A stretch of 59,465 bases of DNA from Tolypothrix carrinoi HA7290-LM1 (GCA_019358935.1 JAHHIK010000046.1:1-59465); one strand, 5' to 3'. Shown: positions 43,368 to 59,465, counted from the stretch's first letter. Numbers and translations are program-made. Notes: generated by a model not told the origin, from the letters alone.

Positions 43368-46040
43368 GTGAATTATCCTGCGCTGTCTCCAGAACTTGAC
43401 CCGCATACGATATTTCCCTTTGAGTTGGATCAATTTCAGAAGGATGCGATCGCCTCGCTGAACGCTGGAAGCTCCGTTGTTGTCTGTGCGCCCACCGGCA
43501 GCGGCAAAACTTTAATCGGGGAATACGCCATTTATCGCGCTTTGTCGCGGGGTAAACGTGTATTTTACACGACGCCTCTAAAGGCGCTGTCAAATCAAAA
43601 GTTACGTGATTTTCGCTCAAAATTCGGTTCCGATCTCGTCGGACTGTTAACTGGCGATATCTCTGTTAACAGAGATGCGCCGATTGTAGTCATGACTACA
43701 GAAATTTTCCGAAATATGCTCTATGGCACACCCATCGGGCAAGTCGGCACTTCATTGGTAGACGTTGAGGTGGTGGTGCTGGATGAGTGCCACTACATGA
43801 ACGACCGTCAACGGGGCACAGTTTGGGAAGAATCGATTATTTATTGCCCAGGTGAAGTTCAACTGGTAGCGCTTTCCGCCACAGTTGCCAATAGCGACCA
43901 ACTCACCGACTGGCTAAATCAAGTTCACGGTCCAACTGACCTGATTTACTCGGATTTTCGCCCAGTTCCCTTAGATTTTAGCTTTGGCAATCCCAAGGGG
44001 CTGTTTCCCTTGTTGAATGAAAGCAAAAATAAAATCAACCCCCGCTTAGTTAAGAGAGGGAAAAGAGGACCGCAAGACAGAGGTAGAGGTGGTAGACCAG
44101 AAGCTCCCAGCATAGAATACACCCTGAGCCAGCTACAGCAAAGGGATATGCTACCCGCAATTTACTTTATCTTCAGCCGCCGGGGATGTGATAAAGCCGT
44201 GGCTGAGGTGGGTGATTTGTGGCTGGTGGATAATGACGAGTCCCAAGTGTTGCGGCGGCAAATTGACGATTTTTTATCTCGCAATCCCGAAGCCGGACGT
44301 TCTGGACAAATTGCCCCTTTATATAGGGGAATTGCCGCACACCATGCGGGAATTTTACCAGCGTGGAAAGTCTTGGTAGAAGAACTTTTTCAGCAAGGAC
44401 TGATTAAAGTCGTCTTTGCTACCGAGACATTGGCAGCAGGAATTAACATGCCAGCCCGGACAACTGTGATTTCCACCCTTTCCAAGCGTACTGACACCGG
44501 ACACCGCCTGTTAAACGCTTCCGAATTTCTGCAAATGGCGGGAAGAGCCGGACGCCGGGGGATGGACAAGCAAGGTTACGTGGTGACGTTGCAAACTCCC
44601 TTTGAAGGAGCCAAAGAAGCGGCATATCTAGCAACATCTAAACCTGACCCTTTGGTTAGCCAATTTACACCAAGTTACGGTATGGTACTGAACTTACTGC
44701 AAACTCACACCTTGGAAGAAGCCAAGGAATTGATAGAGCGCAGTTTTGGGCAGTACATGGCGACGTTGCATTTAAGACCAGATTATGAGGAGATTGGCGA
44801 ACTGCAAGCAGAATTGGCACAACTTCAAGCGCAAATAGCCGCAGTAGATGAAAAGGAAATTGCTGTTTATGAGAAATTGCGCCAACGGCTAAAAGTAGAA
44901 CGGCAACTTTTGAAAACTCTGCAAGAACAGGCTCAGTCAGATAGGCAAGAAGAATTGGGCATGATGTTGAGCTTTGCAGTGTCGGGGACGCTTTTAGGTT
45001 TGAAGGGGAAGAATATTCCCGTATCTACACCTGTAACAGCGGTGTTGGTGGGGAAAACCCCAGGCTCCGGTCAATCGCCTTACTTGGTATGCTTGGGGCA
45101 AGATAACCGCTGGTATGTAGCGACGACTGGGGATGTCGTGGATTTGTATGCGGAACTACCGCGAGTTGAAGTTGAGGCTGATTTGTTACCACCGCCGGAA
45201 ATGCCTTTAAAACCAGGACAGTCACGTCGGGGTAATGAAGAAACAGCAGCGATCGCTTCTATAATTCCCGATCCGAGCGAGTTTGTGCAATTACCTCCAG
45301 AAGTAGCCGAACAACTTAGCCGCACTGCTGCTGTGCAAGAGCAAATAGAAGCTCATCCCATACATCAAGCCGGCAATCTCCCAGCAATTTTTAAACGCAA
45401 AGCCCGCTGTGTCGAACTCGAAGCCGAAATTCAACTAATGCAGGAACAAGTTGAGCAACAATCCCAACGTCATTGGGAAGAATTTGTCAACTTAATTGAA
45501 ATTTTGCAACACTTTAACGCATTGGTTAACTTAGTCCCAACTCAATTAGGGCAAATCGCCGCCGCTATGCGCGGAGAAAATGAATTGTGGCTGGGTTTGG
45601 CGCTCGCCAGTGGGGAGTTGGATAATTTAGATCCGCACCATTTAGCAGCAGCAGCTGCGGCTTTGGTGACAGAAACTCCGCGTCCAGATAGTAAAGTACA
45701 CTTCGACTTAAGTGATGAAGTAGTAGAAGCACTAGGAAAATTGCGGGGAATTCGCCGCCAAATGTTTCAATTACAACGCCGGTATAGCGTGGCGTTGCCT
45801 ATTTGGTTGGAATTTGAGTTAATTGCCATAATCGAACAATGGGCACTGGGTATGCCGTGGACACAACTGTGCGAACATACCACTTTAGATGAAGGTGATG
45901 TAGTCAGGTTGCTGCGCCGCACTTTGGATTTATTATCCCAGATACCCCACGTCCCCCATCTGCCGGAATCGTTGCGCCGCAATGCTCATCGGGCAATGCA
46001 ATTGATTGACAGGTTCCCGGTTAATGAGGAGGTTGAATAA
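43368..46040 (+). CDS. Ski2/HelY-like DExH RNA helicase
   Basis: APTGSGKT, LDECHY, ALSAT, QMAGRAGRRG, C-terminal DEGDVVRLLRR (DSHCT); likely GTG start 43368. Confidence 0.93.
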   Translation: MNYPALSPELDPHTIFPFELDQFQKDAIASLNAGSSVVVCAPTGSGKTLIGEYAIYRALSRGKRVFYTTPLKALSNQKLRDFRSKFGSDLVGLLTGDISVNRDAPIVVMTTEIFRNMLYGTPIGQVGTSLVDVEVVVLDECHYMNDRQRGTVWEESIIYCPGEVQLVALSATVANSDQLTDWLNQVHGPTDLIYSDFRPVPLDFSFGNPKGLFPLLNESKNKINPRLVKRGKRGPQDRGRGGRPEAPSIEYTLSQLQQRDMLPAIYFIFSRRGCDKAVAEVGDLWLVDNDESQVLRRQIDDFLSRNPEAGRSGQIAPLYRGIAAHHAGILPAWKVLVEELFQQGLIKVVFATETLAAGINMPARTTVISTLSKRTDTGHRLLNASEFLQMAGRAGRRGMDKQGYVVTLQTPFEGAKEAAYLATSKPDPLVSQFTPSYGMVLNLLQTHTLEEAKELIERSFGQYMATLHLRPDYEEIGELQAELAQLQAQIAAVDEKEIAVYEKLRQRLKVERQLLKTLQEQAQSDRQEELGMMLSFAVSGTLLGLKGKNIPVSTPVTAVLVGKTPGSGQSPYLVCLGQDNRWYVATTGDVVDLYAELPRVEVEADLLPPPEMPLKPGQSRRGNEETAAIASIIPDPSEFVQLPPEVAEQLSRTAAVQEQIEAHPIHQAGNLPAIFKRKARCVELEAEIQLMQEQVEQQSQRHWEEFVNLIEILQHFNALVNLVPTQLGQIAAAMRGENELWLGLALASGELDNLDPHHLAAAAAALVTETPRPDSKVHFDLSDEVVEALGKLRGIRRQMFQLQRRYSVALPIWLEFELIAIIEQWALGMPWTQLCEHTTLDEGDVVRLLRRTLDLLSQIPHVPHLPESLRRNAHRAMQLIDRFPVNEEVE

Positions 46041-46041
46041 T

Positions 46042-46162
46042 TTGGGGCATTGGGCATGGGGAATGGGGCAGGGGGGCAGGGGGGCAGGGGGGGCAGGGGG
46101 GCAGGGGGAGAAATATTTCTTCTTTCTTAACGATGCCCATTGCCCAATGCCCATTGCCCAAT
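46042..46162. repeat. STRR/G-rich repeats between convergent genes
   Basis: GGGCATT/GGGGGCA units facing TGCCCAT/TGCCCAA units. Confidence 0.8.
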
Positions 46163-46169
46163 TCGCAAT

Positions 46170-46526
46170 TTAATAGACTAAAGGTTGCCCACCTTTGAGA
46201 TTACGTAAAGTATTTACACAATATGGGCAGTCGCAACCAAATAAAGCGATCGCCTCATGGCTTTCTTCTTCCGAAAAGTCCAACATGGCAACATTTTTAT
46301 CAGATTGCTGTACTGAACTCACTTTAGGTGGGGGTGTTGTCTGTGAAACCCGCGTACAAACAAAGTTGTTATACCCTGCATGTGGATGACGTACACATGC
46401 TTGACCATCTTTCATACGCAGAACTGGCTGTGACGCATGTGCTGGGTTTACTACCCCAATGATAGACATCATAGATGCAAAAATAGTCGGGCTGGAAAGT
46501 AAAGTCAGTATTAATTTTCTGTTCAT
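46170..46526 (-). CDS. Exported hypothetical protein with GCDCxxC motif
   Basis: Signal peptide ending PAHA; LDFSEEES..FGCDCPYC. Confidence 0.75.
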   Translation of the reverse strand: MNRKLILTLLSSPTIFASMMSIIGVVNPAHASQPVLRMKDGQACVRHPHAGYNNFVCTRVSQTTPPPKVSSVQQSDKNVAMLDFSEEESHEAIALFGCDCPYCVNTLRNLKGGQPLVY

Positions 46527-46642
46527 AAGTTTTTCGGGAACGTCTTACTGAACGATTAGGTTATCCGATTAACTGTTACAGGTCAAGAGAGTTTTTTCAG
46601 GAAAATAATTAGTTCTACTTTTGATTTTTAGATTTCTAATTT

Positions 46643-46689
46643 GTAGTAGGCGTTTTAATGCCTGTTTTAAGCACTGAAGTGCTTACTAC
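46643..46689. repeat. GTAG-type REP doublet overlapping the GH3 gene stop
   Basis: GTAGTAGGCGTTTTAATGCCTG...TAAGCACTGAAGTGCTTACTAC. Confidence 0.65.
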
Positions 46690-48199
46690 GAATCAATTCA
46701 ATTTCAGCGAGTAGTTCTGATTCGATGGGTGTGGTTGAGAGAATATCGTGTTTCAAGTCACCCCATTTTTTACTTGATCGCGTTTTATATAAAGCGATAA
46801 TTTCCGGGATGCGTGAAGATACCAATACTCGCACGGGTTGAAGTTGATTTAGAAGTCTGGCATGGCGATATTGAGGAGATTGTTGCAATGCATCATCTAA
46901 TTGTTGAGCGAGTTCTTGGGGATTTACATTCGTTTGGTCGAGTAACAAAACGTAATGTTGCGGCTGCTTGACAGGTACTAAACTTTTAAAGGATGTTCCT
47001 TGTAATGGTAAGGAATCGAGAATTTGACGGACAAATTCAGAATTTAGTTTCTCGCCTACTAAATCGCTGATTTCTTGTGTGCGTCCGAGAAATTGCAAAC
47101 AAGGTGTATTTAAATAGAAATGGGTAACGCTCAGGCGATCGCCTATTCGATAACGATACAATCCTCCTTTCTGAGAAATAATTATCTCATAAATGCCGTC
47201 TTTTTCCAATTCATGCAAACGGTAAATTTTGCCGGTTTCATCCTCAAACTCAAAAAACACCTCATTCAGCATTGGTACGCATCCCCGCGCTTCAATTAAG
47301 GGGATAGTTAGCGGTGCTTCGGTAGCGAGGAGTCCTTTACCCTGTACTAAAACGTTGGGAAACAATAAACGCAAAAATTCCGCACCATCCGCAGCGTTAG
47401 CGCTATCCCAACAAGAGATAAGTTTGAGTTCTTGCCAAAGTTGCGTCCAAGGAATCTCTGTATTGAGAAGCATTTGGTGTCGTTGAGGTGAAAGGCGATC
47501 GCCTATTTCTAATAAAAGTCGTGTACGATTATTTTGAATATAATCGAGGATAACTTTAAGAAAACTCGGACTCCAAATAGAGATAATTTCCAACTGATCT
47601 TCAAGTAAAAGTGTCTGAGAAAGCTTATTTTTAAATTCTTCCGCATCACCAACGCGATTTAATCCGCGAGGTGAAATCAAAAAAGGACTGAGAAACCATC
47701 TTAACCATTTATCTAAATATTCTGAATCATTGTTTAATCCGATTTCATCTGCTTTTTCTCCCAATTGTGGCGAAATGCAAAAGTATATTTTACCTGTTGA
47801 AAAATTTGCCCCATGTACAATTAAATCATGTGCCCAAACGCAGAACATTTGATTAAAAGAACTCAGCAAAGATTTCGTGTAAGGAATTAATTTAGCAGCA
47901 CCGCGACTTCCGGAAGTTTTTTCATAAAAAAGGATTGATTCAGATGTTAGGAAAGGCTTTTTGGTTTCCTTTTGTTGCAAAATCGACTTTTCAATATCGT
48001 GGTATGCAACTATGGGTATGCGATGCCAATCAGCAATAGATGTGACATTTAAAGATTTACCATATTCACTTTGAATAAGACGTTTGATAATCGCTTTTTG
48101 TACTGCTTGCTGCGACGCTTGGGGATTTTTAAGTGCAGAATGAAATCTTTTAGCAGCAGGGGTGAGAAGCTTTGCGAATAGTTTAATAATAAAGCGCAT
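46667..48199 (-). CDS. GH3-family acyl-adenylate/amide ligase
   Basis: EKTSGSRGAAKLIPYT, SIWSPSF, QGKGLLATEA, GGLYRYRIGD, FLGR..SDLVGEKL. Confidence 0.88.
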   Translation of the reverse strand: MRFIIKLFAKLLTPAAKRFHSALKNPQASQQAVQKAIIKRLIQSEYGKSLNVTSIADWHRIPIVAYHDIEKSILQQKETKKPFLTSESILFYEKTSGSRGAAKLIPYTKSLLSSFNQMFCVWAHDLIVHGANFSTGKIYFCISPQLGEKADEIGLNNDSEYLDKWLRWFLSPFLISPRGLNRVGDAEEFKNKLSQTLLLEDQLEIISIWSPSFLKVILDYIQNNRTRLLLEIGDRLSPQRHQMLLNTEIPWTQLWQELKLISCWDSANAADGAEFLRLLFPNVLVQGKGLLATEAPLTIPLIEARGCVPMLNEVFFEFEDETGKIYRLHELEKDGIYEIIISQKGGLYRYRIGDRLSVTHFYLNTPCLQFLGRTQEISDLVGEKLNSEFVRQILDSLPLQGTSFKSLVPVKQPQHYVLLLDQTNVNPQELAQQLDDALQQSPQYRHARLLNQLQPVRVLVSSRIPEIIALYKTRSSKKWGDLKHDILSTTPIESELLAEIELIRSKHFSA

Positions 48200-48252
48200 T
48201 TATGGATGAAACCTCACGCAAAGGCGCAAAGACGCAAAGAAAGAGTTTAAAA

Positions 48253-48897
48253 TTAAGTTTCTGAGTTTTCGCTGTTGACTTTTGACTCTTGACTAAATTT
48301 TTTGTTTGGATAAATATGAGTGAAAACAGGAACATAAGTTCCATCTAAAATTGTAACTCCTGGTGCGATGTGATTCCAAGCTCCTAAAAAGACATTATTG
48401 CCGATTTTCACTTTTTTAACATATAGCAGTAAATCTTGTTTTTTCGGTTTGATGATGTGAGAATAAATGCCGACACCGTTACCAAATACGACATTATCGC
48501 CGATTTCGATTAAAGCGCGATCGCTTATTTCTAACTGCGGTGTCCAATAAACATTTTTACCCACTTTTGCCCCCCACAACCGCAACCACAATGAGAATGC
48601 ACCAGGGATAAGCCGCAACAGTGTTTCTAATGCGGGAAAGGCAATATATATTAGTTGTATTTGGTGACTTCCCCACCAAGGTGAATAATTTTTACCACCT
48701 AAATAACTGATTCCTTCTTTTAAAGGATAGAAATATTCGTGTATTGTATATACCAATAAGGGCAAACAGTACAGAGAAAAAATAAGCGCCATAATACTTA
48801 ATATTCCTGGATGAAAGCAAATCCCCAGGAAAGCTGCCAAAGTCATGAGAATAACAAAGGCAGGAAAGCCGGAAAGCATTATGCTAAGTGGAGTCAT
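48253..48897 (-). CDS. Membrane-anchored left-handed beta-helix acyltransferase
   Basis: Two N-terminal TMs; LRLWGAKVGKNVYW, IEIGDNVVFG, VKIGNNVFLG hexapeptides. Confidence 0.85.
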   Translation of the reverse strand: MTPLSIMLSGFPAFVILMTLAAFLGICFHPGILSIMALIFSLYCLPLLVYTIHEYFYPLKEGISYLGGKNYSPWWGSHQIQLIYIAFPALETLLRLIPGAFSLWLRLWGAKVGKNVYWTPQLEISDRALIEIGDNVVFGNGVGIYSHIIKPKKQDLLLYVKKVKIGNNVFLGAWNHIAPGVTILDGTYVPVFTHIYPNKKFSQESKVNSENSET

Positions 48898-49285
48898 ACG
48901 TTTTACAAACTGAGTCTCTCAAGCAGTGGAAGCAAGACGGAACAACATAATGTTACTAATGTAAACACTACTTTAATAGTACTTTTTTTAACAATTATTT
49001 AATTAAATTTTATGAAAAAATATCAAATTTACATTAATTATATGTAATTTATACTCATGTAGATGATAAAAGTCAGATAAATATTATTGCTTCTACCGAC
49101 ATGTACCTTACATCTGCGTACCGTAACTTAATCAACAGAAAAATATATCTGCTTTTTACCAGCAAAGTCATTAAAGATTGAGTCAGGAGAGCTTCTAATG
49201 TAACAATTTATCAAGTGTAAAAGCTTTTAGTGTGTAGTTTTTCTGAGTTTTATCGTCAACCAAGCTTACGTATTGAGGTAAATAA

Positions 49286-50365
49286 TTGAAAATATATTTA
49301 AAGTCAAGTCGAGCGATCGCAACTTTTTTTGCATTTTCTTTTCTACTAAGTAGCTGTGGTCGCAATATCCCATCATTTAAAGAACTTGAAGGAATGACAA
49401 GTTCTCTTAAATCAGGAGCCAGTAGCATGGCTGAAGACATTTATAACTCTTGTATTACCAAAACTAAATATATATCTTTTCTGGTAGTTCCAGATTCCGC
49501 AGGGTCATTTACCCAAAGAGAAGAGCAGGAGAAAATTTGCGAAACAAGTAGCAAACCTACTTCTAAAAATGTAGCAAGAGCAAATGCAATTCTTACAGAA
49601 TATATAGATGCTTTAGTTTATCTGGCTAATGGGAAAAATTTATCTGGTCAGACTATATCTTTTGATGAAAATTTTACTAAACTTGGTAATTCACTAAAAA
49701 GCTTGAGCATTCCAGGAGCAGCAGGAACCCAATCTAGAGCTATTTTTAATGAGTCGGAAGTTAACGCGGGAATAAGTATTGCCAAATTCCTAACTAATGT
49801 ATTTACAAAGGAGTTTCGCCGGGACAAGTTGAAGCAAGCTATTTTGTGTACCGATAAGGATATTCAAACTTATATTAAAGGATCATCAACGTCTGAACAA
49901 CCTACAGGAGGATTAATTGCACTCACACAACAAGGCTATATCAACTTGACTTTGGAGATAGAAGAAGAAAAGATTCGAGGGTATTTTACTGATTACATAG
50001 CTGTACTTGGTAGTAATCCAAATAGTCGTATTTTAGATTTTCGACAGTTAGAAGAAAAATATAACGAGGCTATGGATAATTTGAGAAAAAGAAGAGATAA
50101 TGCTGAAACTTATATAGAGGTACTTAGTAAAGTAGCTGAAATGCACGCCAAGCTTAAAACTGAATTTGAAGGTAAAAACAATTTAAATGATGCTCAGTTA
50201 CAAAACTATTGTAAAGACTTCTTTCAACCAAAGACCGAGAAAGTTGCCAGCAAAGATAAGTCAGTTAAATACGATGCTGAAGAACTGAGAAAAGTGACAA
50301 ATATAGTATCTGAATACACGAAAGTTTTAAAACCCTTAATTCAGAAGCTAGATGAAACTAGATAA
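49286..50365 (+). CDS. Hypothetical alpha-helical lipoprotein
   Basis: TTG start after GAGG; lipobox FLLSSC; AT-rich. Confidence 0.75.
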   Translation: MKIYLKSSRAIATFFAFSFLLSSCGRNIPSFKELEGMTSSLKSGASSMAEDIYNSCITKTKYISFLVVPDSAGSFTQREEQEKICETSSKPTSKNVARANAILTEYIDALVYLANGKNLSGQTISFDENFTKLGNSLKSLSIPGAAGTQSRAIFNESEVNAGISIAKFLTNVFTKEFRRDKLKQAILCTDKDIQTYIKGSSTSEQPTGGLIALTQQGYINLTLEIEEEKIRGYFTDYIAVLGSNPNSRILDFRQLEEKYNEAMDNLRKRRDNAETYIEVLSKVAEMHAKLKTEFEGKNNLNDAQLQNYCKDFFQPKTEKVASKDKSVKYDAEELRKVTNIVSEYTKVLKPLIQKLDETR

Positions 50366-50417
50366 ATGACTTTTTATTCAATTTTTAGGAGAATTTTGAA
50401 ATAACAGGAGATGAAAT

Positions 50418-50852
50418 ATGGCAGACAAGAAACTTAGCTCACAAGAGTTATTCACTATCAGTCAAATGATAATTGAGATTGTGAGTATTAGTCGAGTTAG
50501 AAGATTAATCTTACATCAGAGTGGTAAAATAACTTTAGCGGAGTTATTAAATATTTCCACAGCAGAAAGCACTCTTTTAGGAGATGCAACTGAGCTCTCT
50601 AATCAATTTATTAATGGCATAGTTACAGACTTAGAATCTCCAGGAGATAGAATTAAAATAGCTACAAAAAAGGCACAAGATTCTATTAATAAGATAGAAA
50701 ATTTTCAAAACTTCATAGGTATATTAGGAAGTGTAATTGAGCTTTTAGGACAAATTGTCACTGCTGCGCCTTCTGTTATAATCGGACAAGTTCCATTTGC
50801 CGCAATAGCTAGTGGAGTAGATAAATTTGAAAACCTGTTAAAACAGTTATAG
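50418..50852 (+). CDS. Hypothetical helical protein with hydrophobic C-terminus
   Basis: AGGAG RBS, 144 aa, follows the lipoprotein gene. Confidence 0.75.
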   Translation: MADKKLSSQELFTISQMIIEIVSISRVRRLILHQSGKITLAELLNISTAESTLLGDATELSNQFINGIVTDLESPGDRIKIATKKAQDSINKIENFQNFIGILGSVIELLGQIVTAAPSVIIGQVPFAAIASGVDKFENLLKQL

Positions 50853-50879
50853 AATGACTCTAATTAAATGGAGTCATGC

Positions 50880-50920
50880 GGAAAGTTATAAGTTATTAAA
50901 TTAATAACTCATAACTTTCC
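50880..50920. terminator. Long hairpin between convergent genes
   Basis: GGAAAGTTATAAGTTATTAA-A-TTAATAACTCATAACTTTCC. Confidence 0.65.
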
Positions 50921-50936
50921 CAGACAAAATCGTTAA

Positions 50937-51662
50937 TCAAAACGGCAAAAATAGCTTTTGGGTTAAGCTTAACTTCGTCTCTACACCTAAAGAATCTGGT
51001 ATTTTGTCACATTCAAAATAAGTCCCGTGCATTTTATCCCAAAGCTTGAAATTTGCTCCATAATTACCACAAATACCGCTGCTGGCGTGATGCCAAGCAT
51101 GATTCTGGGGTAAAATTAGCCAAGGTGACAAACAGCGGTAAAATAAAGATGTTGGTGTCGGTGTAAAAATACTGTGTCTCCACAAATCTAAAGCCGAACT
51201 TAAGCTGACACCCGCAACATACCAGCTAGAATCTTGCAGCACATAGATAAATAAAGCGTGAACCCACAAGTAAATAATTAGGAAACTTGTCCACAAAGTA
51301 TTGCGAGAAGTTCCTAAAATATCCATTTGTGTAACTGTGTGATGCACTTGATGCACATACCACAGCCAACGGGTATGAAATAAGCGATGATTCCAGTAGT
51401 AAAGATAATCTACAAATACGAAGCTGAAGCAAAATGCAACGATGGGGTGCAGATTTAGTGCAGATTGAAAATTGGAAAGCAAATGCTGATAAAGTTGATA
51501 TATAACAGTTATTTGCAGGATGGGAATCAAAATTCCCTGAAAAAATAGATTAATTCCATCCACAAACCAGTCTTCACGCTTCTTTAAGCGAAATAAAGTA
51601 AGTTTGTTGTCATTAGCCACAGTCAGCGTCAGCAAAATCACGAAGGCAAAAAAAACTAACAT
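50937..51662 (-). CDS. Sterol desaturase / fatty-acid hydroxylase family protein
   Basis: DYLYYWNHRLFH, HQVHH, WRHS, HAWHH, NYGANF..WDKMHGT. Confidence 0.9.
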   Translation of the reverse strand: MLVFFAFVILLTLTVANDNKLTLFRLKKREDWFVDGINLFFQGILIPILQITVIYQLYQHLLSNFQSALNLHPIVAFCFSFVFVDYLYYWNHRLFHTRWLWYVHQVHHTVTQMDILGTSRNTLWTSFLIIYLWVHALFIYVLQDSSWYVAGVSLSSALDLWRHSIFTPTPTSLFYRCLSPWLILPQNHAWHHASSGICGNYGANFKLWDKMHGTYFECDKIPDSLGVETKLSLTQKLFLPF

Positions 51663-51776
51663 TTCAAAAAACAGTGTCTCTTTACACCATTTGCAAGTTG
51701 AATTTTATTTATAATTTTTCTCAGGTTCTACCTGGGAATTATGAAGTGGCTTTATTTTGCCACTTCTTTTTGTGAA

Positions 51777-51869
51777 CAGGACTTACGCACTCTTTCACGG
51801 AGAAACGAACCACGAAGAGACGAAGGACACGAAGGAAGAAGGATGAGAGAGATTTTTGCGTAAGTTCTA
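51777..51869. mobile_element. MITE-like element with AGGACTTACGCA terminal repeats
   Basis: CAGGACTTACGCA ... TGCGTAAGTTCTA with internal ACGAAG-type repeats. Confidence 0.65.
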
Positions 51870-51879
51870 TGAATATAGT

Positions 51880-52902
51880 TCACACCCAAAATTTGATTTC
51901 TACAGATTTTTCTGGTAAGTTTCTTGGATCTTCCCCTTGAGCGATTTTGTTGCGGATAGATTCGACAAAGACGTGGATGGTATCTGCGGGGGTGTTGGCA
52001 AAATTGCTGCCGTATTTTTCAATTACTTGCCACTGGATGTTTAAAGCTTCGACATCTTGGCGGATAATATATTGAGCAGTCCATTTGACAAAAGGTCGTG
52101 CTAACTTGTTCCAAATGCCGTAGTTGAAGGTTACATCAGTGTAAACTAAAGTTGAGTCCGCAGCTTCGGGAATCGATTGGCTGGTGATGAAAAGTTTTCT
52201 GTGCGTTCCCATATCATACTCAACGCTGGTGATATTCGGCATATGAAAGCTGTCGATATGACGAATTTCGTAACCTTGAGAGTTGAGGAAGTGTGTAAAC
52301 CAACCGAGATTTGTTGTCTCGTTACGGTAGGATGCGAATACTGAACCGTTGCGTCTTTGGACTGTCATTTCTAGCTGTGAAGCGCTAGGTGTGCGGAAGA
52401 CTCCGGGATGAACTGATGCGGTGTGGGGAATGTCGATGAAGTTTTCAGCGCAGTTGGTGACGTTGTTGCGAAAGCGGTTGATGACACGTACTGTTTCCCA
52501 TCCTGGTTGTTTATAGGAAGGCATTTTGAAAGGCGCAAATTCTTGACTTGGATTTTGCGTCAGTCGCACATAAACATATCCATCTTGCTCTTTTGTGTCA
52601 TAAGATAACACGCGACGAGCATCGCTAACTTGAAAATTTTCACCTTCAGCAGGTACAGCTACCACCTTGCCGGTTTTATCGTAAACCCAACCGTGGTAAG
52701 GACACTGGATTTTGCCTCCACAGATTTTACCATGAGACAGACGGCTGTTTCTGTGCATACAGCGATCGCGCAATACAACCGCTTTCCCATCATCACCACG
52801 AAACACCACCAGCCATTCATCTAAAACTGTGCGTTGCAGTATCGTCTTCAATTTTAGTTGCTTGCTTTCACAAACAATATACCAAAAATCCTCAAATCTC
52901 AC
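51880..52902 (-). CDS. Rieske non-heme iron oxygenase (3)
   Basis: CMH..CPYHGW Rieske ligands; NFIDIPHTASVH; GTG start overlaps the ferredoxin TGA (GTGA). Confidence 0.92.
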   Translation of the reverse strand: MRFEDFWYIVCESKQLKLKTILQRTVLDEWLVVFRGDDGKAVVLRDRCMHRNSRLSHGKICGGKIQCPYHGWVYDKTGKVVAVPAEGENFQVSDARRVLSYDTKEQDGYVYVRLTQNPSQEFAPFKMPSYKQPGWETVRVINRFRNNVTNCAENFIDIPHTASVHPGVFRTPSASQLEMTVQRRNGSVFASYRNETTNLGWFTHFLNSQGYEIRHIDSFHMPNITSVEYDMGTHRKLFITSQSIPEAADSTLVYTDVTFNYGIWNKLARPFVKWTAQYIIRQDVEALNIQWQVIEKYGSNFANTPADTIHVFVESIRNKIAQGEDPRNLPEKSVEIKFWV

Positions 52903-53192
52903 TTTTCCCCCGCATAACTTTTTATTTCTATATCGTTTGTTAAATCTATCTGGCAAGCAAGTCTTGCTTGTTGATTTCCCGGTGCAAATATCTCTAAAAT
53001 TTCTTTTTCTTCTTCGCTAGGAGGTGGAATATCACCTTCTACAACTACCAGACAAGTTCCACAAATTCCCGTCCGACAACCAAATAACACCGGAGAATTT
53101 TGTACTGTCAGATGTTCAGAAAGTTTTTCATGTCTTTCCAAACTAATTGGTTGATAATTGCTTTGAGGAAAACGGATAATATGTTTATTCAT
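52899..53192 (-). CDS. 2Fe-2S ferredoxin
   Basis: GCRTGICGTC...RLACQ; ATG overlaps the upstream TAA (TAATG). Confidence 0.92.
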   Translation of the reverse strand: MNKHIIRFPQSNYQPISLERHEKLSEHLTVQNSPVLFGCRTGICGTCLVVVEGDIPPPSEEEKEILEIFAPGNQQARLACQIDLTNDIEIKSYAGEK

Positions 53193-54367
53193 TAGGACTT
53201 ACGCAAAAATTCTCTCTCTTCCTCATTCCTCTGTGAACTCTGCGTCGCGCCAGTCGCTACAACGGGGGGAACCCCCGCAACGCGCTGGCTTCTCTGCGGT
53301 TCGTTAAATAAATCTTCTTTGGCTAATAAAAACTTATTTTTCGACCAGACAGACGCTTCCAGTTGATTTACATACTGCATATATTTAACCAACGGAATAT
53401 CTATATTAAGAATTGCATTGGGATTGTAGCGAATATTGTCATAAATCATGCCATCTTCACCACGCAAGAAATAGTAAGCTAATTTCGTCAGCAAAAGCAA
53501 CATTCGCGTAATAACCCAACCGAAAATACCTTTTCTTTCTTCTGCAACATAAATAGGTTGAATCCGCGTTCTACCCGTTTCTTGTGGGGTGTAAGCGTAA
53601 ATCATATGTAATGGTGGCACAATACGAACTTTTTTCATAATAGTTAAAAGCCCGATACAGCCATCTGCATATCTCATAGTATATTCGTAATGTTCGCCGA
53701 TAATTTTTCGCCCAATTCGCTCTCTGGTTGTCGTTTGAGGAAATTCACCGCTCAGTGTAAAATCAACAATTGTACCGGATTCATCTTGTTGTAAATATAA
53801 ATCCATTTTAATATTTAATTTATGTACGGTTTGCAGATGTTGAGCATCAATGCCATTCATCATGCAAATGTGGTGATGACAACTTCTCTCAAAAGCTTTG
53901 TCGTGTATTGTCACGAGAGATTTATCTTTAAGTTCATCAAATTCAACTACTTTATTTGGTGCTTTCGTATCTGGATAAACCCAAATAAAATCATATTTTT
54001 CATCTGTAGCGTAAGATTGCAGTTTCGCTTTGTCGGGAATTGTTGATTGACAAGGAATATCCTGACAGTTTCCCTCACCATCAAATGCCCAATGATGAAA
54101 AAAACAGCGAATGAAATTACCATCAACTCGTCCAATTCCTAAATCAGTTCCTAAATGTGGGCAATAAGCATCTAATGCGCGAATCTTTCCATCTTGTCCG
54201 CGAAAGATAACGATTTGTTGTCCGCAAAGATTTAAAGATTTTGCTTGACCTTTTGGTATTTCTTTGCTTGGACAAGCAATATACCAGCCTTTTGCGATAA
54301 TATCCCAATTGTTAAAGATTTTCATCTTCAGAATCGGTTGTGTGTTTTGATTTTGAAATTGATTCAT
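53192..54367 (-). CDS. Rieske non-heme iron oxygenase (2) with repeat-derived C-terminal tail
   Basis: CPHLG..CFFHHW; NGIDAQHLQTVH. Confidence 0.92.
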   Translation of the reverse strand: MNQFQNQNTQPILKMKIFNNWDIIAKGWYIACPSKEIPKGQAKSLNLCGQQIVIFRGQDGKIRALDAYCPHLGTDLGIGRVDGNFIRCFFHHWAFDGEGNCQDIPCQSTIPDKAKLQSYATDEKYDFIWVYPDTKAPNKVVEFDELKDKSLVTIHDKAFERSCHHHICMMNGIDAQHLQTVHKLNIKMDLYLQQDESGTIVDFTLSGEFPQTTTRERIGRKIIGEHYEYTMRYADGCIGLLTIMKKVRIVPPLHMIYAYTPQETGRTRIQPIYVAEERKGIFGWVITRMLLLLTKLAYYFLRGEDGMIYDNIRYNPNAILNIDIPLVKYMQYVNQLEASVWSKNKFLLAKEDLFNEPQRSQRVAGVPPVVATGATQSSQRNEEEREFLRKS

Positions 54368-54400
54368 TATAAGATAAGTAAATAATTAATCTGGAAATAT

Positions 54401-54435
54401 GTAGTAAGCGCTGTCTTCGCTGAAGCGCTTACTAC
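54401..54435. repeat. GTAG-type REP palindrome containing the stop of the CylC/AurF-like gene
   Basis: GTAGTAAGCGCT-N11-AGCGCTTACTAC. Confidence 0.75.
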
Positions 54436-55625
54436 GAATTTTCAGAAAACGAGGATGATGAAAAGGCTTTTGTTTGCGTTGCTAAATATTTAGGAATAGA
54501 ATTTGATGCCATTAGGGACATTTGTTTATTACTTTGCCAAACGTAGTCAAGTTTATCGAGGTAAACTTTATAAGATTCCATCGCTTCGGTGTGGGTTTGA
54601 TAGCTGCGATGCAGTCCTTCTGATTCTTGGGTGAAGCTAAGACGCATCATTTCTTTTGCTTCAATATCGGTCATACTAAAAGATGGCGATCGCAAGACTT
54701 GATAAATCGCTGCATACAATGCCGGATCGTACCAAAAAATCCCGTTTATAACCGCACTAAAATGATAATGGTCTTTTTGACAACCACGCAAACCCAAGTT
54801 AGCGACTAACTTCTCAAATGCTGTCGGTGGTTGCAAACACGAAATCACATCATGGGATATAATTGTCGAACTGTTAAAATGAAAGCTTTCATCCATGAAG
54901 TGATAGTAAGATATCTTTGCAGGGATGGGAGCGTTTTCTTGGTCGGGATGTTTCTGATAAAAATTGCTTAATTTGTGCTGTACTAACTTACCGTTGAGTG
55001 TTCGCACACCCCGCACGGTGAAGTATTGGCAAGCTAAGAAGGTATTATCTGATGATAAAAGTCCAAAGGTTTGTAGTTGCAGCTTTTTCCAGAATCTTTT
55101 GAAGGTGTTGGTATCAGCAAAAATCATCGTTTCCGCAAATGGTCCGCGCATTGTATAAGAGAAAATTCGCTTGCCAAATAATGCGGCTTCTACTTGGTGG
55201 GAAATTGTTTTAAAAGCGTGAATATGTGCGCGTTCTTGGGCAGATTCTAAGTCGAGCATATCACAAACTAGACGAAAGTCTTCTTGGGCATAAAGTCCGG
55301 CTGCGCTAGTTTGATTAAAGAAGATTGTCGCAATTTCTGCGGAGATAATTTGCGAATAATAAGCTACCCAATAAAGTTGATTTAAGATAACTTTTTGACT
55401 TTGGCTTGCTTGTGACCATACAGGTGTACCGTAAAGTAAAGAGAATTCCTCTGGGTTCCAGTAGACATCTTTGCAATCTTCATATTTAAATGCGGCAGCA
55501 GCTTCGTCAAGCAGTTGCGTGTGGTCTTGTTGTTTGTTGCGTGTGTGGTTAATTTGTAGTTTGCGGTAAACTTTGGGATTTTCTAGAAGTGTGTTTTGTT
55601 TAAGTTCGTTGAGTGTTGTGTTCAT
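54432..55625 (-). CDS. CylC/AurF-type dimetal-carboxylate enzyme (halogenase/oxygenase)
   Basis: YWNPEEFSLLYGTP..LNQLYW..E.AT..FNQ, ESAQERAHIHAF, HFMDESFH; resembles CylC-family proteins from memory. Confidence 0.8.
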   Translation of the reverse strand: MNTTLNELKQNTLLENPKVYRKLQINHTRNKQQDHTQLLDEAAAAFKYEDCKDVYWNPEEFSLLYGTPVWSQASQSQKVILNQLYWVAYYSQIISAEIATIFFNQTSAAGLYAQEDFRLVCDMLDLESAQERAHIHAFKTISHQVEAALFGKRIFSYTMRGPFAETMIFADTNTFKRFWKKLQLQTFGLLSSDNTFLACQYFTVRGVRTLNGKLVQHKLSNFYQKHPDQENAPIPAKISYYHFMDESFHFNSSTIISHDVISCLQPPTAFEKLVANLGLRGCQKDHYHFSAVINGIFWYDPALYAAIYQVLRSPSFSMTDIEAKEMMRLSFTQESEGLHRSYQTHTEAMESYKVYLDKLDYVWQSNKQMSLMASNSIPKYLATQTKAFSSSSFSENS

Positions 55626-55649
55626 GTTAAATATTTATAAATATAAGAA

Positions 55650-55786
55650 AAACCTAACCCCCTACCCCCTTTCCTACGAGGAAAGGGGGAATTTTTACTC
55701 CCCTCTCCGTTTCGGAGAGGGGTTGGGGGAGCGGAAAGTTTGAGCGGAGGTTTCCTCCGATCAAAGCGCATCCTCGACAGAGGTTC
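55650..55786. repeat. Composite hairpin element (CCCCTCTCC..GGAGAGGGG family) with an inserted AAAGTTTGAGCGGAGGTTTCCTCCGATCAAAGC unit
   Basis: Same host element as the insert in the GT4 gene at 18175; the inner unit also occurs near 25758. Confidence 0.7.
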
Positions 55787-55788
55787 TT

Positions 55789-56817
55789 TTATACACATTT
55801 GTGGGGTGGGAAAGGGTGAAATGATTTTTGCTGGTCGAGTTGTTGAAGTATAATTTCTGCATGGGAGTGACTCATGAGCGATCGCAACAATTTCAAACGA
55901 CTACCACTGTGAGTTTCTGTATCCAATTCGGCAAAAATCTTTACTTTCTGTTGACGTGATAAATCACCTTTGACTTTCTCTATTGCAGTTACGACGCTTT
56001 GCGGTCCGACTTGCACCATCTGCAAAAATGATGCTAGTGTCTCGATTATCGTATTTTGGCTTGATTGGGTAACATCTATTCGGTCAAATAGCGTTACTCC
56101 TGTACCGTGGTGACGGCTTTCGTCTTGCAAAAACGAATGTAACATCAAACTTAAATCTCTATTTACACAGTCTTTAGCGAGACTGCGATAATGGCTTAAA
56201 CCCCAACCTTCAAGCACCACTTGTAGCACGAACAGCAGCACGGTTTTATCTTGACTTTCTATCAAATCTCCTAAAAAGCGTAGGAAAAAGTTATTTCCCA
56301 CAGGTTCGGGAGTTGGCAGAAATTGGCTAATCTGGGCAAAATGGCTAGCTTCATCAGCACAAAAAAGAGCATAAAGCATCCTTTCTTCTGTCGTTTCTGC
56401 CAGCAGCACCATTTTTGCCATGTAACCCATACCCGCTTTCTCGATGAAGTAGGATTCTTCTAGCAGTCCGCAGCTACAAAGTTGTAAAATCTCAGCTTGC
56501 TCGTTTGGAGTAGCATCGGTAAAGATTTGTACATTATGTAAGTTGAAGTGGGTGGCGTCCCAAGGGGGATGGGGGGACAAGGGGGACAAGGAGGACAAGG
56601 GGGACAAGGGGGACAAGGAGGACAAGGAGGACAAGGGGGAATTTGCTTTCTTATCTCCCCCCTCTCCCTTGTCTCCCTTGTCTCCCTTGTCCCCTTGTCC
56701 CCTTGTCTCCCCCTCTCCCCCTCTCTTCAAAAGAGCTGAGGACAATAAGCGATGCAGTTTGTCTTGCTGTTGCAGGTGGGGTAGGTCGAATCCAGCGGTT
56801 TTGTGTTGAATATTCAT
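55789..56817 (-). CDS. Ferritin-like diiron protein with in-frame repeat insertion
   Basis: E..IEK, ADEASH, LEGWGLSHY, DESRHH ligand pattern. Confidence 0.85.
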   Translation of the reverse strand: MNIQHKTAGFDLPHLQQQDKLHRLLSSALLKRGGEGETRGQGDKGDKGDKGEGGDKKANSPLSSLSSLSPLSPLSSLSPLSPHPPWDATHFNLHNVQIFTDATPNEQAEILQLCSCGLLEESYFIEKAGMGYMAKMVLLAETTEERMLYALFCADEASHFAQISQFLPTPEPVGNNFFLRFLGDLIESQDKTVLLFVLQVVLEGWGLSHYRSLAKDCVNRDLSLMLHSFLQDESRHHGTGVTLFDRIDVTQSSQNTIIETLASFLQMVQVGPQSVVTAIEKVKGDLSRQQKVKIFAELDTETHSGSRLKLLRSLMSHSHAEIILQQLDQQKSFHPFPPHKCV

Positions 56818-56837
56818 TGGACTTATTGCGAAATTTT

Positions 56838-56901
56838 GCCCCCTGCCCCCTGCCCCTGCCCCCTGCCCCCTGCCCCTGCCCCCTGCCCCCTGCCCCCTGC
56901 C
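56838..56901. repeat. (CCCCCTG/CCCCTG)n array
   Basis: Read directly between Rieske 1 and the ferritin-like gene. Confidence 0.9.
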
Positions 56902-56905
56902 TTTA

Positions 56906-57991
56906 TCAGTCGCTAGTCATTTCGTCTCGCCATTTTGAGCGATCGCTACTTTCTATGTCACGCGATCGCGCATCTAGCCAAGTTTCCCAAGATAAAGCTC
57001 TCTGTCTTTCCACATGATTGATAAACTGCATAATGGATTGATCTGCCTTAATCGGGGTTCTCATGTCAAACTTAATTGTTTGGAAAATCTTAGTATCACC
57101 TTTAGCAAAGTAGTTGCCCACCATCTTCGTAAGTGATAGCACAACTGAGTTAAATAACCAACCGAAAATACCTTTGCGTTTTTTCGTAATTAACAAAGTT
57201 TGACCTTCGGCTTTTCCTTGTTCCGTCATACGCAGGGTAAACATGATGTGGAAGTGCAAAAAGTCGGGTCCAACTGTAACTGTACCGGTGCTACCGTACC
57301 AATAACACATGCTGTAGGTGACGGCGTTTTTGTAGAAAGGACGAATCAACTTGATAAAAAACGAATCTTCACCACCGCGTGTAGTATTGCTGAAGGTAAT
57401 TGCATTTTCATTCAGTTCGTCTTTCTCGAAGACAATTTCTAATGGTAGGTTGTGAACTGTATTGAAGTGTTGAGCGTCAATTGCATTAATCATCACCACA
57501 TTGGGATGACAATTTTTGATGAATCGCGAACCTAAAGCGCTGTAACATTCTTCATCTTCCAACTCTGGGACAAAGGGTAACGGTTGGTGCGGAGTTTCCC
57601 CAGTCCAAACCCAAATCATCCCGTATTTCTCAGCTGTGTGCCAAGATTTCAACTTCATCGGCAGCGGTTCTGACAAACAGGGGATATCAACACAAATCCC
57701 ATCAGCATCAAACTTCCAGTTGTGGAAAAAACAGCGCAATTCATTACCCTCAACTTTACCTTCCGCTAAATGAGCACCCATATGCGGACAGTAAGCGTCA
57801 AAGGTAATTACTCTTTTGTCTTGACCTCGGTAAATAACTAGTTCGCGACCGAGAACTGTGACAGCTTTTACCTCACCCTTCCTTAAATTGCGCGAGGGTA
57901 ATACCCAATACCACCCCTCGATAAAGCGCTGGGGATTATTGAAAGTCTTTTTTTGGCTTCTTGCGCTAAAAATCTGCGAGTTGACGTTCAT
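56906..57991 (-). CDS. Rieske non-heme iron oxygenase (1)
   Basis: CPHMG..CFFHNW; NAIDAQHFNTVH. Confidence 0.92.
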   Translation of the reverse strand: MNVNSQIFSARSQKKTFNNPQRFIEGWYWVLPSRNLRKGEVKAVTVLGRELVIYRGQDKRVITFDAYCPHMGAHLAEGKVEGNELRCFFHNWKFDADGICVDIPCLSEPLPMKLKSWHTAEKYGMIWVWTGETPHQPLPFVPELEDEECYSALGSRFIKNCHPNVVMINAIDAQHFNTVHNLPLEIVFEKDELNENAITFSNTTRGGEDSFFIKLIRPFYKNAVTYSMCYWYGSTGTVTVGPDFLHFHIMFTLRMTEQGKAEGQTLLITKKRKGIFGWLFNSVVLSLTKMVGNYFAKGDTKIFQTIKFDMRTPIKADQSIMQFINHVERQRALSWETWLDARSRDIESSDRSKWRDEMTSD

Positions 57992-58048
57992 GTTGAGGTT
58001 TTCACTTCTGGTGAAGCAGCTGATATATAATTCTTAATTTAATAGCCC

Positions 58049-58840
58049 TCAAAATGTTGCGATTGCAGGTTTTGCTTGAGGAGTATTTTTTTCTATCCCC
58101 CATTCTGCTGAAAACTGTTGCTGCTGCTTCACACAAGAATTAGCGAACCACATTCTTCTCCCTGCCGAAGTCAGGTTTTCTTCACAAATCTCTGTCAAGC
58201 AAACGAGTTCGGCGCCTTGGAGATGATCGGGGTTACATTGCTCAAAAAAGCGGATGTGAGGATCTTGCAGTCTTTCTTGAGGAATTCCCCGCAGACAGTC
58301 TCGCAGCACATGGGGATGAGGAAAGCGGACAACTCCCGCTTTTGTGTCATAATAATTGCCAAAGCGATCGCCTGCAAGAAACTCGATCAACGAGGAAATA
58401 TAAACTGGTGTAACTGCATCATATCGCGGATAAAACTCTTGCCAAAAAATCGGCAGAAAACGATAGGTACGATATCCCCCAGAAATGAGCAGCCAATATA
58501 GTCTACCCTGAGCATAATCTCGCCGAAGCTGGTTTACTGAAGTTATCCAACAGCGAGAAAGCGCAGAACTCGACCACCCGCTAGGGTCCATTATCGTGTC
58601 CCCAGAATAGACTACACTTAGTTTTTCCCCTTCAAACTCAGTGTTATACATCAACAGAGTAGAAAAACCTTGCAGCCGATCTGTTTTTTCATCTTTGAGC
58701 AGAATTACCCAGTTTTTCTGACTTAAGTCTGTCTCAAAAACATCTCGCTTTACACCTTCAAAATAAATGCTAAGTAGCGAGTACATAGCTTCCTTATCTT
58801 CTGGTGATAAATCCTCCGTGTGAACCAGTCGGCTTTTCAT
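58049..58840 (-). CDS. Hypothetical protein, probable GNAT/acyltransferase fold; first gene of the cluster
   Basis: LQGFSTL, VVYSGDTIMDP, LYWLLISGGYRTYRFLP, NP..GAELVCL; fold is inferred. Confidence 0.6.
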   Translation of the reverse strand: MKSRLVHTEDLSPEDKEAMYSLLSIYFEGVKRDVFETDLSQKNWVILLKDEKTDRLQGFSTLLMYNTEFEGEKLSVVYSGDTIMDPSGWSSSALSRCWITSVNQLRRDYAQGRLYWLLISGGYRTYRFLPIFWQEFYPRYDAVTPVYISSLIEFLAGDRFGNYYDTKAGVVRFPHPHVLRDCLRGIPQERLQDPHIRFFEQCNPDHLQGAELVCLTEICEENLTSAGRRMWFANSCVKQQQQFSAEWGIEKNTPQAKPAIATF

Positions 58841-59030
58841 TGCTTCATCAAAACAAATTTTGTCGTTCCATTATATGAACTGTAATCATTTGTTTGATGT
58901 AATTATAAAGTTCTGTGTCAGAAACTCATCTGTCCTTCTTTCTCAGTCCTCGATCCGCAGTCCCCAGTTTCCAGTCTGTAGTGTTAAAACAGATGTCAGG
59001 CTTTGCAAAAAGGCTGGTGAATCAAGTTTC

Positions 59031-59340
59031 ATGAGGCTTTGATACTCTTTAATGAGGCTTTTATATAGATGAATGAGGCTTTTATACTCTTTAATGAGGC
59101 TTTTATATAGATGAATGAGGCTTTTATACTCTTTAATGAGGCTTTTATATAGATGAATGAGGCTTTTATACTCTTTAATGAGGCTTTTATATAGATGAAT
59201 GAGGCTTTTATATAGATGAATGAGGCTTTTATATAGATGAATGAGGCTTTTATATAGATGAATGAGGCTTTTATATAGATGAACGAGGCTTTTATATAGA
59301 TGAACGAGGCTTTTATATAGATGAACGAGGCTTTTATATA
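59031..59340. repeat. 21-bp tandem array, 14 full copies plus one partial
   Basis: Units ATGAGGCTTTTATATAGATGA, ATGAGGCTTTTATACTCTTTA and ACGAGGCTTTTATATAGATGA. Confidence 0.95.
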
Positions 59341-59465
59341 CAGGACTTACGCAACTGGCACATTGCGATCGCCAATTAGTAGTAATTTAGTACTAGAAAC
59401 AAGTATTTCTGAAATCAGCCCTTTTTAGAATTGTTGATAGAAATGAATCAAGTAGATTCCGGGAA
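59341..59465. mobile_element. Probable end of an IS/MITE that runs off the window
   Basis: CAGGACTTACGCA, the same terminus as at 51777 and 53193, cuts the 21-bp array mid-unit. Confidence 0.5.

Follow-up and report, generated by a model that had tools for sequence, protein, structure and literature searches.

The gene cluster and its published relatives

The DNA examined here (the window, 59,465 nucleotides; GCA_019358935.1 JAHHIK010000046.1:1-59465) comes from Tolypothrix carrinoi HA7290-LM1 and carries, from position 58840 down to 46667, a cluster of ten open reading frames (ORFs), all on the minus strand, which we call A to J. Six of them encode predicted iron-dependent oxidative enzymes, among them a homologue of the dimetal halogenase CylC, and the others a ferredoxin, two putative acyltransferases and a GH3-family ligase. 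An earlier reading made from the sequence alone had described ten co-oriented genes in this order, and the ORF map together with Pfam and NCBIfam domain matches bears it out. The Pfam matches comprise three Rieske domains (E-values 7e-24, 7e-26 and 1e-24), Fer2, FA_hydroxylase, Hexapep and three GH3 domains. The matches of D to AurF (PF11583; 17.4 bits, cut-off 29.6) and of C to Ferritin_2 (20.4, cut-off 24.7) fall below cut-off, and A is without any Pfam or NCBIfam match. Two plus-strand ORFs are interposed at 49286-50852.

58049..58840, minus strand: A, GNAT-fold acyltransferase, partner of GH3, sll0263 orthologue (structure model, Foldseek, co-occurrence)
56906..57991, minus strand: B, Rieske oxygenase 1 (PF00355 and ligands)
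55789..56817, minus strand: C, ferritin-like diiron protein with a 2-His/4-carboxylate set (ligand conservation, Atlas neighbours)
54432..55625, minus strand: D, CylC homologue of the Rieske clade, with eight of nine family residues and Gln216 replacing Glu (alignment)
53192..54367, minus strand: E, Rieske oxygenase 2, sll1849 orthologue, with a repeat-extended tail (Pfam, locus comparison)
52899..53192, minus strand: F, 2Fe-2S ferredoxin of the Fed6 (ssl2559) type (PF00111, cysteines, gene order)
51880..52902, minus strand: G, Rieske oxygenase 3 of the pobA/sll1297 type (PF00355 and VanA_C, ligands)
50937..51662, minus strand: H, membrane diiron enzyme of the fatty-acid-hydroxylase/sterol-desaturase superfamily (PF04116, E-value 2e-22, His boxes)
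49286..50852, plus strand: insert of two ORFs (359 and 144 aa), low in GC, strain-specific and outside the pathway (GC, 0 of 57 loci)
48253..48897, minus strand: I, left-handed beta-helix acyltransferase with a hydrophobic N-terminus, sll1511 orthologue (Hexapep)
46667..48199, minus strand: J, GH3-family acyl acid-amide ligase with a subfamily-specific motif II (GH3 N, M and C domains, motifs)

The cluster is real and of a published but uncharacterised kind. A "cluster f" around fed6, drawn in 2014, consists of a hypothetical gene, a Rieske gene, two hypotheticals, fed6, pobA, a sterol desaturase and another hypothetical (PMC4284462), an order that corresponds to A, B, C, D, F, G, H and I. Unlike the cluster described here, in which E is interposed between D and F, the legend of that drawing lists neither a GH3 gene nor this second Rieske gene, and it gives its hypotheticals without function. 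In a survey of CylC homologues, 36 of 95 clusters were "Rieske-containing", the commonest architecture, with no product and with action on fatty-acid intermediates proposed (PMC8406957). This agrees with the statement in the sequence-only reading that such clusters had been surveyed in cyanobacteria without a product. The "Rieske-containing" and "PriA-containing" clusters of the survey resemble ours in having two to four Rieske genes, a sterol desaturase, one CylC homologue, acyl transferases and no carrier, and the survey counts these CylC homologues as halogenases. The GH3 gene, the GNAT-GH3 core and a Glu-to-Gln change in D appear to go beyond its main-text description, the supplement aside. 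A literature search, mostly outside subscription papers, found no product for this cluster class, and no paper was found for sll0225, sll1510 or sll1511. The sequence-only reading had missed both the 2014 drawing and that the conserved core is the GNAT-GH3 pair. This analysis adds that core, the Gln216 of D, the absence of triterpene cyclases from many carriers, an amidohydrolase confined to carriers and the mapping onto Synechocystis.

Co-inheritance and the GNAT-GH3 core

A scan with D gave 308 relatives, and the locus counts that follow come from the best 80 of the 308. D is present in all 80 loci, C in 77, F in 75, B in 74, A in 72, G in 70, E in 67, H in 62, I in 57 and J in 54, many loci being cut by contig ends. 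Gene order was counted in the 57 loci flanked by 10 kb on each side. The nine genes that remain when E is set aside occur together in 45 of these, in 44 of them in the order of the window, and 41 contain all ten; E is mobile within the cluster. The co-conserved gene content that the sequence-only reading supposed is thus present, and the ten genes likely form one unit that travels together. Among 41 related genomes, orthologues of D (at least 68%) and of J (at least 43%) mark the same 16, even where J lies elsewhere, and in one of the 41 J is found as fragments only (G039). Across the phylum D occurs in 19 of 151 genomes and J in all 19, counts among related genomes that show co-inheritance and carry no p-value.

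More distant copies show the same genes in other arrangements. In one distant family 8 of 9 genomes carry two blocks, D-F-G-H-I-J and B-A-C, some of them adjoining a flagellar FliI gene, and metagenome contigs of 65-69% GC carry the same cluster genes. A Synechocystis-like genome (G139) retains the whole set in five separate locations (A-B-C-D, F-G and H-I as blocks, E and J singly), and the retention of the genes despite dispersal fits a cellular function. In that genome and in another of its kind (G163), A-B-C-D lies 45 bp behind a fatty-acid desaturase gene (L193:8388-13468; L195:4754-9829), which we take to be desD.

Decaying copies are also seen. The examined stretch of one genome (G006) retains neither A nor B and little of C, and another genome has fragmented B and J with an intact B elsewhere (G012). 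E is broken in two in G003, and also in a G001 stretch that is truncated at its edge. The gap between F and G holds variable cargo in Nostoc loci, including a toxin-deaminase-family ORF and an SMI1/KNR4 ORF (L050:11566-11958; L057:11937-12401).

A was modelled with a GNAT fold (pLDDT 85; Foldseek match to AAC(2') with an E-value of 4e-7; VIA Z of 10-12 to many GNAT proteins including LasI and FeeM), and a sequence search of solved structures gave no match for it. Its alignment to LasI (Z 11.8, root-mean-square deviation 3.2, 164 aligned) ties with those to GCN5 and NatD, and also FeeM. After its fourth strand A is without a Gly-rich loop of the acetyl-CoA type. Members of the A family are found in 28 of 151 genomes, each of which is also one of the 30 with a GH3 match. 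Nine of the 28 are without D; in seven of these A and GH3 are no more than 5 kb apart, and in the other two they are on different contigs. The D-less loci carry a fatty-acid desaturase, G-like Rieske, P450, B12 radical-SAM, MMPL or I-like gene, and their GH3 proteins have an unusual motif II in common with those of D-linked loci that is not in an unlinked GH3. In one D-containing locus (L023) the usual A is swapped for a second kind, that of the D-less loci, located behind J. From these distributions, the conserved core of the class is A and J rather than the CylC homologue. Several D-less loci (L223-L230, L233, L234) also have a further GNAT protein of ~370 aa or a ~930-aa RnfD/FG-GAP/UnbV protein.

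J has the GH3 N, M and C domains and all three nucleotide-binding motifs, with the motif residues present in 49-55 of 55 orthologues, and among solved structures it matches plant GH3 enzymes (E-value 2e-9). The one characterised bacterial GH3 that we found, OlsH, converts free fatty acid and ATP to N-acyl ornithine and works with a partner acyltransferase (PMC12493201). J and A resemble OlsH and OlsI (PMC12493201) as a bacterial GH3 with three nucleotide motifs and an acyltransferase partner. Unlike that system, A has a GNAT fold whereas OlsI has an alpha/beta-hydrolase fold, a family for which Pfam gave no match among the ten genes, and the cluster adds six iron enzymes.

Five query proteins found no fatty acyl-AMP ligase (FAAL), acyl carrier protein (ACP) or polyketide synthase (PKS) in the window contig or in loci L001-L090, in keeping with the earlier statement that none is visible. 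The earlier label "carrier-independent" holds in that the cluster is without a carrier protein of its own. Independence from any carrier is unsupported, as a GNAT-fold protein (A) or an acyl-ACP-desaturase-like one (C) could use the housekeeping ACP.

In Synechocystis PCC 6803 the cluster genes are retained at scattered positions (sll0263, sll1511, sll1849 and Fed6), which makes knockouts feasible. By exact look-ups A, I and E share 90% clusters with sll0263, sll1511 and sll1849, of which the last is listed at 211 aa, compared with 344 aa for its relatives, E being short or split in this strain. F-G corresponds to ssl2559-sll1297 by gene order, F-G lying behind a CheA-like gene in G184 as ssl2559-sll1297 does in TU679. 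D was equated with sll0266, which decreases under iron deprivation (PMC3516471), by gene numbering after sll0263; slr0224 and slr0226, also considered as cluster members, proved not to be. One study reports fed6 as essential (PMC4284462) and another its full deletion (PMC8887894). The ssl2559-sll1297 pair is induced by phosphate starvation (PMC4195498; PMC11126600) and forms the tail of a chemotaxis operon, an arrangement that G139 and G185 do not share. We gave the induction less weight as evidence for a phosphorus-sparing lipid, since G184, G139 and G185 differ in the upstream operon. A Pho-box-like pattern had no site in window positions 46000-59465.

The CylC homologue and the other iron enzymes

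Among named proteins, D is closest to those of Tolypothrix and Hassallia (95-96%). Nine residues have been defined in dimetal halogenases, all of them required for chlorination by NocO, and a small subset of the family has Gln at E252 (PMC12101540). D has the first-helix Glu, the QExxH and the HxxDExxH of CylC and NocO (PMC12101540), with 30-35% identity to homologues from carrier/PKS-type loci. It keeps eight of the nine residues (E97, Q130, E131, H134, H242, D245, E246 and H249), which are present in 209 of 209 Rieske-clade sequences, a redundant set made up of D itself, 88 locus ORFs and 120 database proteins. The ninth position is Gln216 in all 209, whereas Glu occupies it in all 10 homologues from loci that we classed as carrier/PKS-type by reading their gene neighbours; Gln216 was matched to NocO E252 by alignment to these homologues and by spacing, NocO itself being outside the alignment. 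Gln is fixed in 42 of 42 sequences of a diverse set that includes distant lineages, a clade-specific stretch surrounds it, and a FastTree tree of 48 rows places the Gln clade apart from the carrier-type rows. Where the NocO paper mentions its Gln subset, it assigns the subset to no clade (PMC12101540). The E252A change abolishes the chlorination activity of NocO, and E252 is thought not to coordinate iron (PMC12101540). Halogenation by D is doubtful, judged by alignment, because Gln replaces a Glu whose loss inactivates NocO; since a change to Ala is harsher than one to Gln, it is doubtful rather than excluded. A further difference from CylC and NocO is that no cognate ACP or FAAL was found in the loci covered above.

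D also differs from AurF, having Gln at both AurF-specific carboxylate positions (E196 and D135 of the 3-His/4-carboxylate site) in addition to its PF11583 score below cut-off, and its candidacy as an AurF N-oxygenase was rejected on these two residues. No solved structure matched D in a sequence search, and a plasmid collection held only four CylC homologues, all distant (27-32%).

Ligand conservation was checked in 66-82 aligned orthologues per gene. B, E and G follow the Rieske pattern CxH...CxxH, NxxDxxHxxxxH and C-terminal Asp, invariant across orthologues: the ligands of B (C68, H70, C87, H90, N169, D172, H175, H180 and D299) are in 80 of 80 and the Rieske/iron ligands of G in 73 of 73. 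E is a paralogue of B (34%), and the solved structures nearest to B are of the SxtT/GxtA type and KshA, over its N-terminal half only. C has the set E126, E156, H159, E203, E233 and H236 in 82 of 82 (E...ExxH...E...ExxH), the ordinary 2-His/4-carboxylate type of hydroxylases and desaturases. In the Atlas it neighbours AurF-like proteins and acyl-ACP desaturases, a sequence search of solved structures found nothing significant for it, and the profiles of C and D do not align (probability 1.6%). H has its His boxes in 66 of 66 and scores 46 bits with the OlsE model (cut-off 475). I gives weak matches to the Pls/PosA and WcaF models and is hydrophobic at residues 2-39; both H and I contain hydrophobic segments. 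The cysteines of F (C39, C44, C47 and C80) are in 82 of 82, and F is likely the electron donor of the cluster. The sequence-only reading had credited all six iron enzymes with intact ligand motifs. The ligands of the Rieske proteins, C and H are indeed invariant, and the exception is D with its Gln216, which also weakens the proposal of a halogenated product.

Both overlaps reported beside the ferredoxin exist. The GTGA of F and G is kept in 23 of the 45 loci where the G start follows F closely; this conservation sets the start of G at the GTG at 52902, giving a protein of 340 aa. The TAATG of E and F is a real sequence feature of accidental origin. E extends 49 residues beyond its conserved end through a dispersed repeat present on many contigs of the genome, whereas in most relatives 3-11 residues follow that end, and then a gap to the ferredoxin. 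As a product of this repeat-derived tail, the overlap was rejected as a sign of translational coupling.

The insert between H and I is foreign: its GC fraction is 0.32 against 0.42, it is present in 0 of the 57 related loci, and its two ORFs have no Pfam match. The 359-aa ORF starts, by eye, like a lipoprotein, and the H-I gap (48898-50936) is an insertion hotspot in the genus, with other multi-gene inserts in G001, G003 and G009. Elsewhere in the window, a 21-bp tandem repeat of 13.8 copies lies directly upstream of A and close to the contig end (59051-59340). Short tandem repeats of 7-9 bp lie between B and C (56837-56901) and within C (56561-56719), where they form an in-frame low-complexity insertion near residues 31-85 that most relatives are without. 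A 118-aa ORF between J and a DEAD/DSHCT helicase (46170-46526), with a paralogue on contig C133, is kept across the genus and is no part of the cluster elsewhere. Promoter and terminator scans gave 43 and 16 hits, near the level of shuffled sequence (35.4 ± 5.8 and 10.3 ± 3.2). RNA contigs from four runs in two studies, mostly 90-99% identical, lie over parts of A-H and J and span A-B and F-G; as assembled contigs, compared without a silent control stretch, they cannot show transcription.

A predicted amide lipid and its rivals

Genes that accompany the cluster in relatives suggest an amide lipid. Orthologues of an amidohydrolase were found in 7 of the 151 genomes and, with high identity, in 3 of the 41, and every one of these genomes carries D. 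In all 29 of the 80 examined loci that have it, it adjoins an Mpo1-like gene, whose Pfam family is 2-hydroxy-palmitic acid dioxygenase, and in two lineages (L189 and L199) they are fused. This module recalls ceramide turnover in yeast. A GT2 glycosyltransferase gene lies upstream of the amidohydrolase in several loci, and in several distant ones a short-chain dehydrogenase/reductase (SDR) gene lies between B or A and C. One recurring block combines a bifunctional sterol desaturase/SDR gene, a SnoaL-like gene, GT2, amidohydrolase, Mpo1-like gene and Rieske E (L199:6418-11968; L201:13221-18961). In G012 a 486-aa ORF and a cyclic-peptide-type exporter lie behind D (L097, L212, L213).

The reading that we favour, tentatively and at somewhat less than even confidence, is that the product is an oxidised acyl-amide membrane lipid, assembled by J, A and I, and that F supplies the six iron enzymes with electrons. 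We infer the chemistry throughout from the gene content, motifs, co-inheritance, GNAT fold of A and Gln216 of D observed here. Like OlsH, J would use ATP to adenylate a free fatty acid and couple it through an amide bond to an amino acid or amine, and A would add a further acyl group in the role that OlsI plays for OlsH. The membrane-anchored acyltransferase I may attach an acetyl or acyl group. F would pass electrons to its constant neighbours G and D and probably also to B, C and E, while H, C, D and the Rieske enzymes would hydroxylate or desaturate the chain and head group, D being likelier an oxygenase or oxidase than a halogenase. In many relatives the amidohydrolase and Mpo1-like protein could cleave the amide bond and trim the 2-hydroxy fatty acid that is released, and the GT2 enzyme could glycosylate the product. 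The lipid is likely phosphorus-free and amide-linked, with iron enzymes that oxidise rather than chlorinate. The sequence-only reading had proposed an oxidised, possibly halogenated acyl-amide or lipid; a co-conserved orphan pathway without its own carrier stands, most likely for such an acyl-amide or lipid, with the halogenation weakened.

A number of observations weigh against a membrane lipid made in this way. Six oxidative enzymes are many for a membrane lipid, plant GH3 enzymes also act on aromatic acids and jasmonate, and the amidohydrolase/Mpo1-like module is absent from this genome. J as OlsH itself is rejected by its NF052613 score (25.7 bits, cut-off 620), though by analogy J likely works like OlsH. 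The distribution is patchy (19 of 151) with the cluster decaying in some strains, and the co-occurrence counts overstate the association because kin are not independent. A review describes cyanobacteria as a group in which no ornithine lipids have been identified (PMC12971839). The response of ssl2559-sll1297 to phosphate starvation may only reflect their position behind the chemotaxis operon.

Other products and roles would account for parts of the same evidence. It seems unlikely to us that D works as a genuine dimetal halogenase on an acyl chain, either free or bound to the housekeeping ACP, and that the product is a halogenated acyl amide. D does keep eight of the nine family residues, including the QExxH Gln that separates CylC-type enzymes from AurF, its Gln216 might retain the hydrogen bond of a Glu thought not to bind iron, and the survey classes these proteins as halogenases (PMC8406957). 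The inactivity of NocO E252A in chlorination (PMC12101540) speaks against it, as do the clade-wide fixation of Gln in the diverse set within its own surrounding stretch, the failure to find a cognate ACP or FAAL in the contig and L001-L090, and a class to which no product has been tied. Somewhat less likely again is a small secreted N-acyl amide, a signal or defence compound instead of a structural lipid. A ties structurally with LasI, FeeM, RpaI and TofI, makers of diffusible N-acyl compounds, but equally with histone, N-terminal and aminoglycoside acetyltransferases. A cyclic-peptide-type ABC exporter follows D in G012 and L153 and the distribution is patchy, yet neither an exporter nor a regulator is among the ORF families common to most of the 80 loci, and H and I appear membrane-bound.

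We regard as improbable a catabolic cluster in which the Rieske and diiron enzymes with their ferredoxin degrade an aromatic or lipid substrate activated by J. Rieske-ferredoxin pairs are typical of degradation pathways, and amidohydrolase, Mpo1-like and SDR genes accompany the cluster. However, the members that stay fixed are an amide ligase and two acyltransferases, whereas the hydrolase is optional and missing from this genome, and neither a ring-cleavage enzyme nor a flavin reductase is among the families common to the 80 loci. The tailoring of hopanoids or sterols is very improbable, despite the SdmA sterol demethylase as top NCBIfam match of all three Rieske proteins (far below cut-off), KshA among the nearest structures of B, the "sterol desaturase family" label of H, and MMPL, SDR and B12 radical-SAM neighbours in some loci. 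This genome encodes one triterpene cyclase, but a search for PF13243 (squalene/oxidosqualene cyclase) came up empty in 11 of the 19 genomes with D, all of them 90-100% complete; hopanoids are therefore unlikely substrates, and we rejected hopanoid or sterol substrates on this result.

If the favoured reading of an oxidised acyl-amide membrane lipid is right, the cluster would make a new class of phosphorus-free lipid in cyanobacteria. Should D prove not to be a halogenase, roughly a third of the "dimetal halogenases" in the catalogue would carry the wrong label, and the Gln clade would offer a natural comparison for how diiron enzymes choose chloride. A bolder extension, which we think unlikely, is that the GH3-GNAT pair founds an undescribed ceramide-like amide lipid route common to cyanobacteria and flagellated distant lineages, and that the Gln clade of D is a non-halogenating branch ancestral to the CylC halogenases. 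The product would then be a 2-hydroxyacyl amide, optionally glycosylated and recycled by the amidohydrolase-Mpo1 fusion, and one residue would separate hydroxylation from chlorination. The mapping onto Synechocystis genes, together with a ferredoxin of disputed essentiality, makes the cluster testable in a model strain.

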